Shown here piece by piece: positions 15,938-48,714 of a stretch of 52,769 nt of DNA. Position numbers and translations under genes: made by a program. This DNA is from Legionellaceae bacterium (GTDB lineage: Bacteria; Pseudomonadota; Gammaproteobacteria; UBA12402), in NCBI GenBank assembly GCA_002707695.1, contig PANR01000047.1:1-52769 (forward strand), read 5' to 3'. Within the stretch, counting starts at the first letter, position 1. Each line of letters begins with the position of its first letter. The notes beneath the pieces were generated by a model. It was not told the DNA's origin. It saw nothing but the letters and a program-made list of their open reading frames with translations, and ran no database searches.

Positions 15938-17116
15938 TTAAAGTGTTTCAATTTTCAAGAGCATTTTGTGCAAATTTTTTGCATTAATGAGGTTCACGCC
16001 GTTCACTTGCTGCTCCTCACCATTGTAAACCAAGAAAGCAATAAGCGCCCTTTCACCGACGAGCTTTTGGAAATGTTTAATGCCTTTCAGCAAGGCAGGC
16101 GTAAAGGTGGACGCTGATTTAATCTCTATCGGAATAAGCTTGTCATGGGTTTTAAAAATGACATCCACTTCATTTTGGTTGCTATCCCGATAAAAATATA
16201 AGTTGGCTTCTTTGCCTTGGTTGAATCGATATTTGAGTAATTCAAGAATGACAAAGTTTTCAAACAATGCGCCCCTCGAACGATCTGATTGTATTTGTTG
16301 CCAAGATTCAAACGCGCATAAGCTGCTGGCGATACCAACATCGGTAAAATAAAGTTTGGGCGTTTTGATAATCCGCTTTCCAAAATTTTCAAAATAAGGT
16401 GGTAGTTGAAAGGTTAAATAGGAGGCGCTGAGTATTGACATCCAATTTCTAATAGTGCCTTGCGAAACACCCACATCATTGCTCAAGCTTTCTCGGTTAA
16501 TCACACTACTAATTCTGCCAGCACAAAGACGAATAAAGCCCCGAAACCGATCTAAATCCTTAATATTCACAAGTTGTCGGACATCTCTTTCCACATACGT
16601 TTTGAGATAATTGCGGGCATGTGTTTTAGGATCGAGATGGTGTTGGTAAATGGCGGGATAAAAACCGTTAAATAAATATTCATCAATTGAGAGTTCAACG
16701 TCATTATTGTTGAGTTCGGCCATTGATACTGGGAGCAATTCGAGTATTGCGGTTCGCCCAGCTAACGATTGTGAGATAGCTTCGGTGAGCTGTAGTTGAT
16801 GGCTGCCAGTTAATATGAATGAACCAGGCACGCGGTTTTCGTCCACAGCTGTCTGTATGTAAGAAAGCAATTCTGGTGATCGCTGAATTTCATCAAGTAT
16901 TACGCCCTTTTGTAAATCAAGCGAGTCAAAAAAGGCGCGAGGATCGGCCTCAATAAGTGCGCGAGTGTCTGGGTTTTCAAGATTGTAATAGGGTCGGTTG
17001 GGGTAAGCCGAGCGAGCCAGCGTTGTTTTGCCTGCCTGCCTGGGTCCCATGATGGTGACAATGGGATATTGCGACATGAGGCGCTCAAATTCTGTTTGGA
17101 TTGATCGCTGAAACAT
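15938..17116 (-). CDS. AAA_14-type ATPase with C-terminal DUF4143 (PD-(D/E)xK-like) domain, paralogue A
   Basis: Walker A GPRQAGKTT, Walker B VILDEIQR, C-terminal EVDVIF...IPIEIKS nuclease-like motif. Confidence 0.85.
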   Translation of the reverse strand: MFQRSIQTEFERLMSQYPIVTIMGPRQAGKTTLARSAYPNRPYYNLENPDTRALIEADPRAFFDSLDLQKGVILDEIQRSPELLSYIQTAVDENRVPGSFILTGSHQLQLTEAISQSLAGRTAILELLPVSMAELNNNDVELSIDEYLFNGFYPAIYQHHLDPKTHARNYLKTYVERDVRQLVNIKDLDRFRGFIRLCAGRISSVINRESLSNDVGVSQGTIRNWMSILSASYLTFQLPPYFENFGKRIIKTPKLYFTDVGIASSLCAFESWQQIQSDRSRGALFENFVILELLKYRFNQGKEANLYFYRDSNQNEVDVIFKTHDKLIPIEIKSASTFTPALLKGIKHFQKLVGERALIAFLVYNGEEQQVNGVNLINAKNLHKMLLKIETL

Positions 17117-17117
17117 T

Positions 17118-17222
17118 ATGTAAATCCTTATTTCAATTGCTGATTTTCATAAATTATACCCATTTTTGATAAAAAATCAAGATTTTTATATGTAAATATG
17201 CATTTCAATTGTGGATTTACAT
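17118..17222. promoter_or_regulatory. Two 33-bp imperfect palindromic sites in the divergent AAA-A/uvrD intergenic region
   Basis: ATGTAAATCCTTATTTCAATTGCTGATTTTCAT (17118-17150) and ATGTAAATATGCATTTCAATTGTGGATTTACAT (17190-17222). Outer arms are ATGTAAAT/ATTTACAT and the shared core is ATTTCAATTG. Centres are 72 bp apart. Confidence 0.5.
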
Positions 17223-17272
17223 AAAAATTTGTCCCCTTACCCCTCCTCGATGGCTATGTTACACTGCCGCGC

Positions 17273-47424: not shown

Positions 47425-47462
47425 TATAAGCTAGCTGGCTTTTTTAAGCGAATGTGCTAAAA

Positions 47463-47505
47463 TACTCAGTGAAATGAGTAATTTTACTCAGTCTACTGAG
47501 TAAAA
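47463..47505. promoter_or_regulatory. Two palindromes (TACTCA-N6-TGAGTA and TTTTACTCAG-TCTA-CTGAGTAAAA) upstream of AAA paralogue C
   Basis: 47463-47480 and 47482-47505. The second has perfect 10-bp arms. They lie 22-64 nt before ATG 47527. Confidence 0.55.
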
Positions 47506-47526
47506 TGTAAAAACAGGCCTAACTAT

Positions 47527-48714
47527 ATGTTTAAAAGAGATATTTTTTATGTACTGCAAAAGCGATTAGGTGAAAAAAACCCCTTGATTCAGGTGCTCAG
47601 TGGTCCAAGACAGGTGGGCAAGACCACTATAGTTGAGCAATTGTTGCACGAAATTAACCTGCCAAATCACTATGCATCAGCCGATGGTCCTGGTGGCCGA
47701 GCTCAGACATGGATAAATGAGCAATGGGAGCTGGCTAAACTAGCTAGTCAAAAAAACAACAGTGAGTTTATATTGGTGCTAGATGAAGTTCAAAAGGTAC
47801 CAAATTGGTCTGAGAGTGTTAAGCAGTGTTGGGATGAAGGTCAGAGAAAAAAAATACCTATTAAACTTGTTTTGTTAGGATCAGCCCCTTTGCTTATGCA
47901 GCAAGGTTTGACCGAAAGCCTCACGGGCCGTTTTGAAGTATTGCCAGTGACACATTGGACATGGCCTGAGATGAGGGAGGCATTTGACTGGAGTTTAGAT
48001 GAATACTGCTATTTTGGTGCTTACCCAGGGGCGGCAAAGCTGAGAGAGGATGAGGAGCGCTGGCGGCAATATGTATTAAATAGCTTAATTGAACCAACGC
48101 TTGCAAAAGATGTGTTGTTGATGCAGCAAATAAAAAAACCAGCCCTGCTTAGGCAATTATTTTATCTTGGTTGTGATTACAGTAGTCGAATTCTGTCTTA
48201 TCAAAAAATGTTAGGTCAATTGGATGACGCAGGTAATACAGTGACGCTAGCAGATTATTTGAAATTATTAAATGCAGCTGGCATGCTGGGCGGTTTTGAG
48301 AAATTCAGCCAACAACAGTATAAACAACGTAGCTCGAGCCCAAAACTACAAGCTTATAATACGGCCCTCATTTCAGCTCAATCATTGAAGAAGTTTGAAT
48401 TGGCTAGAAAAAATTTAACAGTATGGGGCCGCTTGATTGAGTCAACGGTCGGTGCATATTTAATAAATGCAGTGCGTGACAGTAATATACAGTGTTTTTA
48501 TTGGCGAGAGCGAAATCAAGAAGTCGATTTTGTTTTACAGCAAGGAGAACAGATTGTTGCAATAGAAATCAAAAGCACCGTGAAAAAAAATACTACGTCA
48601 GGCATGGCAGCCTTTTCAAAAAAGTACCCGCGAGCTCGATTGTTACAAGTGGGTAATCAAGGGCTGGCGCTTGAAGAATTTTTAAGTACAAAGCTGCTAG
48701 ATTTTTTCAATTAA
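47527..48714 (+). CDS. AAA_14-type ATPase with DUF4143 (PD-(D/E)xK-like) domain, paralogue C
   Basis: Walker A GPRQVGKTT, Walker B LVLDEVQKV, C-terminal EVDFVL...VAIEIKS. Confidence 0.85.
   Translation: MFKRDIFYVLQKRLGEKNPLIQVLSGPRQVGKTTIVEQLLHEINLPNHYASADGPGGRAQTWINEQWELAKLASQKNNSEFILVLDEVQKVPNWSESVKQCWDEGQRKKIPIKLVLLGSAPLLMQQGLTESLTGRFEVLPVTHWTWPEMREAFDWSLDEYCYFGAYPGAAKLREDEERWRQYVLNSLIEPTLAKDVLLMQQIKKPALLRQLFYLGCDYSSRILSYQKMLGQLDDAGNTVTLADYLKLLNAAGMLGGFEKFSQQQYKQRSSSPKLQAYNTALISAQSLKKFELARKNLTVWGRLIESTVGAYLINAVRDSNIQCFYWRERNQEVDFVLQQGEQIVAIEIKSTVKKNTTSGMAAFSKKYPRARLLQVGNQGLALEEFLSTKLLDFFN

Follow-up and report, generated by a model that had tools for sequence, protein, structure and literature searches.

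Do the palindromes that precede three ATPase genes in a Legionellaceae bacterium serve the proteins that these genes encode? The genes, here called A, B and C, lie on contig PANR01000047.1 of assembly GCA_002707695.1, and the whole stretch of DNA that was analysed, 52,769 nucleotides, is referred to below as the window. The three open reading frames were found at exactly the coordinates that a first-pass annotation of this DNA had given, and the two or three palindrome copies that it placed before each gene were confirmed with coordinates and shuffle statistics (Table 1). The annotation had also proposed that every protein recognises a DNA motif of its own upstream of its gene, for autoregulation or as a cis target. 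Strong comparative evidence supports such a pairing: the motifs are subfamily-specific, are kept across phyla and domains and overlap promoter elements, a winged helix is predicted in the protein, and a protein residue co-varies with an operator base. On balance, we favour the reading that the palindromes are cognate self-operators that give autoregulation, probably repression.

Profile hidden Markov models (HMMs) placed both domains of the claimed architecture, AAA_14 and DUF4143, above their Pfam gathering thresholds in all three proteins. AAA_14 (PF13173) scored 90.5, 128.8 and 77.5 bits in A, B and C, where membership was defined as more than the gathering threshold of 27 bits together with the Walker A motif GxxxxGK[ST], which reads GPRQAGKTT, GIRRCGKST and GPRQVGKTT, respectively. 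DUF4143 (PF13635; gathering threshold 28.1 bits) lies C-terminal to the ATPase and scored 166.9, 81.3 and 80.5 bits. Over their full length, the three proteins match three different HMM clusters of the PADLOC system PDC-S01 (5e-104 for A, 9e-116 for B and 2e-169 for C; clusters in Table 1). They are full-length, single-gene, standalone members of this family, which combines AAA_14 with DUF4143 and corresponds to COG1373, 'predicted AAA+ superfamily ATPase'. The N-terminus of A, MFQRSIQ, is the consensus of its subfamily. Nothing informative matched in an NCBIfam search, and a sequence search of the PDB with protein A gave only a marginal match to the nuclease lobe of Can2 and no solved structure.

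PDC-S01 is an untested candidate defence family that was proposed by guilt-by-embedding (bioRxiv 10.1101/2024.01.29.577857). Among prokaryotic defence candidates it is reported to rank fourth in abundance, with ~29,500 bacterial and ~10,000 archaeal copies (PMC12988326). One member that was assayed did not protect E. coli B from T4, T5 or T7 (bioRxiv 10.1101/2024.09.26.614923), and a survey of PD-(D/E)XK proteins lists the function of DUF4143/COG1373 as 'unknown' (PMC3424549). In the literature on AAA_14-DUF4143 and PDC-S01, the coverage of which was incomplete, we found no sequence-specific binding, upstream palindromes or autoregulation. This agrees with the earlier remark that such behaviour is not described for the family, as no paper was found that describes upstream palindromes or self-binding.

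The palindromes of the window were compared with dinucleotide shuffles, from which 0.00-0.08 matches per motif were expected. The B motif, TTTCCATTG-N-CAATGGAAA, is present in three copies with an exact period of 33 bp, against an expectation of 0.08, and none of 100 shuffles reached three. The C motif, TACTCAGT-N2-ACTGAGTA, has two matches compared to 0.08 expected, and for the A composite the expectation was 0.00. A look for the three motifs elsewhere found no copy beyond each gene's own promoter within the window. A chance origin of the palindromes is ruled out by the shuffles and by real intergenic controls from homologous loci, described below. A dispersed repeat, of the kind of repetitive extragenic palindromes or miniature inverted-repeat transposable elements, was likewise rejected: the window has no other copy, and a similar site was found elsewhere in only 5 of 64 B loci of ~7 kb each. 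As a search for a phage target motif, the exact B and C operators were compared with IMG/VR and had no match, which is a weak test as it used exact patterns only.

Table 1. Genes, putative operators and predicted promoter elements in the window.
Feature	Position	Strand	Description
Gene A	15938-17116	-	392 aa; AAA_14 ATPase, winged helix, PD-(D/E)xK-like domain (DUF4143); PADLOC PDC-S01 cluster PDLC04790
A operator (putative), proximal	17118-17150	.	ATGTAAAT..ATTTCAATTG..ATTTTCAT, 1 mismatch; over predicted start, 5' untranslated region and ribosome-binding site; 2 nt from ATG
Predicted sigma-70 promoter of A	17153-17180	-	TTGATT-16-TATAAT, 10/12 consensus matches; between the two A operators
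A operator (putative), distal	17190-17222	.	Exact 33-nt composite ATGTAAAT-N4-ATTTCAATTG-N3-ATTTACAT; upstream of -35
Gene B	21324-22610	-	428 aa; AAA_14 + DUF4143; PDC-S01 cluster PDLC04787; nuclease-like domain without ExK
B winged helix-turn-helix coding region (predicted)	21708-21920	-	Residues 231-301; recognition helix 263-275 (S262-TTTVSEY...)
B operator 3 (putative), promoter-proximal	22636-22654	.	TTTCCATTAGTAATGGAAA; abuts -10 hexamer, over predicted start site
Predicted sigma-70 promoter of B	22654-22681	-	TTGACA-16-TATACT, 11/12 consensus matches; -35 inside operator 2
B operator 2 (putative), middle	22669-22687	.	Contains -35 TTGACA
B operator 1 (putative), distal	22702-22720	.	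Perfect TTTCCATTGACAATGGAAA; upstream of -35
Possible extended -10 of C	47455-47463	+	TGcTAAAAT, by eye; abuts operator 1
C operator 1 (putative)	47463-47480	.	TACTCAGTGAAATGAGTA
C operator 2 (putative)	47484-47503	.	Perfect TTACTCAGTCTACTGAGTAA; motif match 47485-47502
Gene C	47527-48714	+	395 aa; AAA_14 + DUF4143; PDC-S01 cluster PDLC04791

Some of these positions might be read as signs of action at the RNA level, where the palindromes would either form hairpins in the 5' untranslated region, with an effect on translation or stability, or terminate transcription of the upstream gene. The ribosome-binding site is part of the proximal A copy, which falls within the predicted 5' untranslated region, and the distal B copy directly follows an outer-membrane-protein gene (22728-23516, - strand), 8 nt past its stop codon, with positions 22700-22722 flagged as weakly terminator-like. 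We regard this account as very unlikely. The distal A copy and B operator 1 are upstream of the predicted -35 and would thus fall outside their own transcript, and the copies at a locus share their sequence, beyond what mere pairing would ask for. Action on RNA also leaves the 33-bp phasing, the embedded -35 and the protein-residue co-variation unexplained. The stems are AT-rich, and the terminator-like B copy, with 10 pairs of which only 3 are G-C, has a weak T tract. The distal B operator might have a second role in stopping read-through into B, either by termination or with a bound protein as a roadblock.

We next turn to homologous loci, of which about 170 were surveyed (80 genome loci for B, 80 metagenome loci for A and 10 unique loci for C). 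Upstream palindromes are present in these loci and their motif follows the protein subfamily. The B loci, at 41-51% protein identity, come from Chlamydiae, Bacteroidales, Legionellales, Patescibacteria, DPANN archaea and Methanoregula. Nearly all of them have one to three palindromes of 19-21 bp with an ATT-N3-AAT core and lineage-specific outer arms, such as ACCGTGTATTGACAATACACGGT in Chlamydiae, TTTCTATT..AATAGAAA in Bacteroidales, TTTGGTYT..AAACCAAA in DPANN archaea and TACATTA.TAATGTA in Methanoregula. A generic palindrome scorer under-counts these arrays, since adjacent copies merge into larger inverted repeats, and a count of the core motif was used instead. The core was found upstream of the gene in 77% of loci; in intergenic upstream regions taken as controls from those loci, the figure was 22%. 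At least two cores were present in 44% and 5%, respectively. Successive cores are spaced by 33 bp in 26 of 43 pairs and by 32 bp in a further 6. The 19-bp sites reach 8.5 per kb in the 170 nt upstream of the gene and 0.42 per kb elsewhere in the loci, a 20-fold difference.

The other two subfamilies have sites of their own kind. Most A loci carry one palindrome of ~31-35 bp, 5-40 nt from the start codon, examples being TATGTAAATTTGCAGTTGAACTGCAAATTTACATA, GGCTAATTG...ATTGACAATTAGCC and GGACAAATTGTAAATCGTATTGACAATTTGTCC. A palindrome score of at least 10 was reached in 56% of A loci; the same score was seen in 0.6% of shuffled sequences and in 9% of real upstream regions used as controls. The C loci (41-59% identity; Collinsella, Bacteroides, Nitrospinae and Proteobacteria) keep TTACTCAG half-sites from Collinsella to Proteobacteria. 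The 7-mer TTACTCA/TGAGTAA was observed upstream in 8 of the 10 unique loci and in 3 of 210 controls, and Collinsella, whose protein is 41% identical to C, has TACTCAGTATACTGAGT twice, almost the C motif of the window. On a Bacteroides finegoldii plasmid (locus L192 of the C subfamily), the half-site forms three direct repeats, ATTGAGTAAAATTA, rather than inverted ones, which hints at a different, head-to-tail binding geometry in that lineage. Among family members that are only 20-32% identical to C, 42% of loci have a long palindrome directly beside the -10 or the ATG.

The position of the sites relative to the promoter is also shared. TTGACA lies inside the operator core in the direction of the gene in 17 B loci and in the opposite direction in 1, and TAnnnT follows TTGACA at 16-18 nt in 15 of the 17 B-homologous loci that carry ATTGACAA. 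The predicted promoters of A and B in the window agree with this arrangement. In Bacteroidetes B loci, a TAnnTTTG -7 box can be seen by eye just past the array. In archaeal B loci, a TTTATAAA TATA box was seen, again by eye, immediately after, between or overlapping the sites. Collectively, the sites exist, are statistically unusual and confined to promoters, overlap promoter elements and travel with the gene across bacteria and archaea. By these comparisons, the predicted core promoter is rebuilt for three transcription systems and the palindromes persisted. We argue that sites kept across three transcription machineries have a binder that is encoded by the gene travelling with them. In one clade of the A subfamily (loci L138, L139, L142, L144, L148, L150 and L162), the operator includes a TTGACA, and TACAAT, TATAAG or CATAAT comes 17 nt after it. 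The ATG lies only 6-8 nt further downstream, which predicts leaderless mRNAs; the automatic choice of a downstream GTG as start codon is probably wrong in some loci of this clade.

For any palindrome upstream of a gene, the default alternative is that some other regulator binds it, whether encoded by the host or elsewhere in the genome; nothing specific speaks for such a regulator here. It would have to be at hand wherever the motif class follows the gene, in Actinobacteria, Bacteroidota, Proteobacteria, Chlamydiae, Patescibacteria and archaea, and a regulator shared by such hosts is implausible. The genes are standalone and have no conserved neighbour, and the motif tracks the protein subfamily and a residue of the recognition helix. 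We therefore give a foreign binder little credence.

The relationship among the three genes also bears on how the motifs are to be understood. A, B and C are 22-25% identical pairwise, and each has thousands of relatives at 41-67% identity, including in other phyla or domains. B-type relatives are found in Chlamydiae, Bacteroidales, Legionellales, Verrucomicrobia, Patescibacteria, DPANN archaea and Methanoregula, and C-type relatives on Coxiella plasmids and in Thermus, Bacteroides and Collinsella. The closest relative of B is 81% identical and that of C 65%. Because their mutual identity is so far below that to outside relatives, the genes, which the first-pass annotation called diverged paralogues, are not paralogues that diverged in place; they belong to three deep subfamilies that, to judge from these identities, were most likely acquired independently. 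The same annotation read a one-base difference between the A and B half-sites as diverging specificity. This likeness is coincidental, as the two proteins belong to different deep subfamilies, and we reject a specificity shift because TTTCAATTG is not a half-site: in the A subfamily it is the asymmetric, -35-like centre (TTGAA in the direction of the gene) of one long palindrome. A protein identical to C, in a three-member cluster, is encoded on a separate 9.8-kb ENA contig, which indicates that the same or a very close organism was sampled elsewhere. The best protein matches point to a host resembling Legionellales or Coxiellaceae.

Another idea is that the gene moves on a small mobile cassette, for which the palindromes would serve as ends, recombination sites or targets. 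The family is subject to extensive horizontal transfer (PMC12988326), and a Coxiella plasmid homologue adjoins an integrase fragment. On a contig of JGI 3300072015, which has the 81%-identical B homologue and keeps the order outer-membrane-protein gene, B, EVE-domain gene...uvrD, gene A is seemingly absent beside uvrD. There, ~210 bp separate uvrD from a 134-aa gene without a Pfam hit, and the comparison with window positions 15448-17272 gives the impression that gene A was inserted there together with its operators, or else was lost from the other contig. We consider the cassette idea highly improbable all the same. The sites are found 5' of the gene only and never flank it, they are embedded in promoter elements, and the neighbouring genes vary among loci. 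In the annotated or gene-called loci, no recombinase lies directly beside the gene, the Coxiella plasmid excepted. In one locus with a C homologue, a DDE transposase lies two genes from it.

The first-pass annotation had suggested looking for a winged helix between the ATPase and nuclease modules, and the predicted structure of B contains one. The AlphaFold2 model of B (predicted local distance difference test (pLDDT) 88, predicted template modelling score 0.88) comprises an AAA+ core with a helical lid, then a winged helix-turn-helix and, last, a PD-(D/E)xK-like fold. In the model, the winged helix-turn-helix has helices at residues 231-243, 251-258 and 263-275 and wing strands at 279-284 and 297-301. 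The best Foldseek match of this model was 2qby_A (E = 2.8e-7), an archaeal Orc1/Cdc6 on origin DNA, followed by DnaA (3r8f_A), subunits of the origin recognition complex (ORC) and STAND ATPases. Template modelling scores were low (0.25-0.37) because the domain orientations differ. At the level of the fold, the B model shows the order of Orc1/Cdc6 and DnaA, an AAA+ module and then a winged helix or helix-turn-helix. At the level of sequence families, none of A, B and C matched the Cdc6 or DnaA Pfam families at E <= 0.01. Of the STAND NTPase families, B alone had a sub-threshold match (nSTAND3, 17.9 versus 27.2 bits) and no repeat domains were found; Avs and Apaf-1 are general AAA+ fold matches only.

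This likeness to initiators underlies the main rival reading, that the palindromes are loading or nucleation sites for an ATP-dependent assembly of the AAA+ and winged-helix modules, with autoregulation as a by-product. With such sites, a nuclease or sensor complex would be held ready on 'home' DNA, or self would be marked. Archaeal orc1/cdc6 genes lie beside origin recognition box (ORB) repeats that are bound by their own product, and DnaA autoregulates through DnaA boxes in the dnaA promoter. In both systems, as with the palindromes of the window, the cognate repeats are directly upstream of the protein's own gene, and the proteins place a winged helix or helix-turn-helix after the AAA+ module, as A-C are predicted to do. 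The best fold match of B to Orc1/Cdc6 on origin DNA and then to DnaA and ORC, the resemblance of multiple 33-bp-phased sites to initiator arrays, and the travel of the palindromes with the gene are all in keeping with loading sites. We nevertheless think this rival unlikely. The arrays are tiny, with one to three sites within a normal promoter, and only one site is present in most A-type loci. As short symmetric palindromes, the sites lie in a promoter and not in an origin, and their systematic overlap with the -35, -10, TATA box or start site suits an operator, not an origin. The genes of the window sit singly between housekeeping genes, as three copies at unrelated loci. Unlike Orc1/Cdc6 and DnaA, moreover, A-C stand outside those sequence families and have an extra, C-terminal PD-(D/E)xK-like domain.

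In profile alignments, the recognition helices all differ, as the motifs do: S262-TTTVSEY in B, S218-QGTIRNW in A and N237-TVTLADY in C. Within the B subfamily, residue 264 co-varies with the operator base at -2, two positions before ATT. Threonine or serine goes with C in 29 of 36 loci, histidine with G in 8 of 8, and glutamate or asparagine with T in 11 of 15 (chi-square 67.8, p = 7e-14, without phylogenetic correction). The glutamate and asparagine classes are not sister clades.

A D...ExK nuclease motif had been claimed for each of the three proteins, and this holds for two of them. A has E316xD318...E331-I-K333 and C has E332xD334...E347-I-K349. From D318 and D334 onward, these residues are invariant in the alignments of their subfamilies, and at the level of the motif the PD-(D/E)xK catalytic residues are in place. 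In B, and throughout the B subfamily, they are not: B has E346-C-D348...Q362-V363-C364, in which the E and K of ExK are missing, and its 'AIQV' aligns with 'AIEVK' of the C subfamily. Across the B subfamily, the glutamine and valine are invariant, the third residue is variable and there is no conserved lysine at this place. The stretch, residues 346-364 (window positions 21519-21575), retains E-x-D and, in the model, the fold, and the B family is highly conserved and widely transferred. By sequence, B-type proteins may bind DNA without catalytic activity, or their active site may be a non-canonical one.

As self-operators, the palindromes would work as follows. Each protein, read as an AAA+ ATPase with a lid, a winged helix-turn-helix and a PD-(D/E)xK-like domain, would bind its own sites through the winged helix as a symmetric dimer or higher oligomer. 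With sites on or beside the -35, -10, start site or ribosome-binding site, occupancy would limit the gene's own transcription, that is, negative autoregulation. The 33-bp phasing of the B-type sites, three turns of DNA, suggests cooperative binding on one DNA face, perhaps coupled to ATP-dependent oligomerisation as in Orc1/Cdc6 or DnaA. The three circuits of this genome would be insulated from one another, because the three deep subfamilies differ in recognition helix and motif. In this scheme, we infer that the encoded protein is the binder, in which direction it regulates and whether ATP plays a part. A family member in Thermus thermophilus is induced 6.6-fold when a plasmid is present (PMC4406477); expression in the AAA_14-DUF4143 family is therefore regulated.

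Several points weigh against self-operators. All of the support is comparative. By the criteria used, no clear site was seen in about 15 of the 79 B loci or in roughly one A locus in three, although a wrongly chosen start codon or a short contig may account for some of them. The uniqueness of the motifs was established across the 52.8-kb window only. The predicted promoters of A and B are consensus matches only, and a strict promoter scan upstream of C found nothing. Several archaeal loci have their sites upstream of the TATA box, which is compatible also with activation. For C, the winged-helix part of the model is too poor to use (pLDDT <50 at residues 187-242), and the co-variation of residue 264 is confounded by phylogeny, with about four independent classes.

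The proposed circuit resembles known ones. The controller (C) proteins of restriction-modification systems likewise have two or three palindromic operators, the C-boxes, over the regulator's own promoter. There, a private motif per system insulates co-resident systems, the same logic as is proposed here, and the operators serve dosage control of a potentially toxic nuclease. The likeness is in circuit logic only. C proteins are Xre-type helix-turn-helix proteins of ~80 aa that are separate from the nuclease, whereas here the predicted DNA-binding module is inside the ATPase-nuclease. A, B and C have no HTH_3 or Xre match, no adjacent restriction-modification genes in the window and no evident methyltransferase partner. 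WYL-type regulators such as BrxR and CapW, and autoregulated type II toxin-antitoxin modules, repress a defence or toxin gene via inverted repeats in its promoter, and de-repression on stress or infection is a plausible logic for the present genes too. BrxR, CapW and antitoxins are, however, separate proteins of different folds, whereas here regulator and effector would be one polypeptide. Autoregulation through promoter palindromes is thus a known circuit. Judged from the comparisons made here, what would be new is its occurrence within a single AAA+/nuclease polypeptide, together with its cross-domain conservation and an apparent recognition code in an abundant, uncharacterised family.

The window neighbours of A, B and C are housekeeping genes and not defence islands. 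Their names were read from translations and from the syntenic JGI contig. A is flanked by atpC and uvrD, B by the EVE-domain gene and the outer-membrane-protein gene, and C by an ABC permease gene and mnhG. A putative gene of 125 aa, rich in serine, proline and arginine, lies between atpC and gene A (15448-15825, - strand), and in the syntenic contig a gene of similar size, without a Pfam hit, adjoins uvrD. Between uvrD and the EVE-domain gene is a 384-aa open reading frame with a GTG start (19511-20665, - strand), in whose translation several hydrophobic stretches and an acidic tail were seen by eye. The syntenic contig has a 359-aa gene without a Pfam hit at the equivalent spot.

If the palindromes are self-operators, AAA_14-DUF4143 proteins are predicted to be sequence-specific DNA binders, and the operators supply exact DNA ligands for electrophoretic mobility shift assays, footprinting and structural work. 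Residue 264 is a suggested, swappable determinant of specificity. The negative heterologous defence assay would perhaps be explained if expression context or the cognate site matters. Cis-regulatory elements seldom remain with their gene when it moves between bacteria and archaea; the palindromes would be one that does, with the core promoter rebuilt for each machinery. A bolder extension, which we hold to be doubtful, is that AAA_14-DUF4143 proteins are a very large, cross-domain group of sequence-specific, Orc1/DnaA-like AAA+ binders fused to a nuclease, whose specificity could be read from a simple code in the recognition helix. The palindromes would then be 'home' sites that park a silenced, ATP-dependent oligomer, and lost occupancy would both de-repress the gene and release an active nuclease or sensor. 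Should this be true, loss of occupancy could follow phage takeover, DNA damage or plasmid entry, and the family would be a self-contained, single-protein module that senses and responds.

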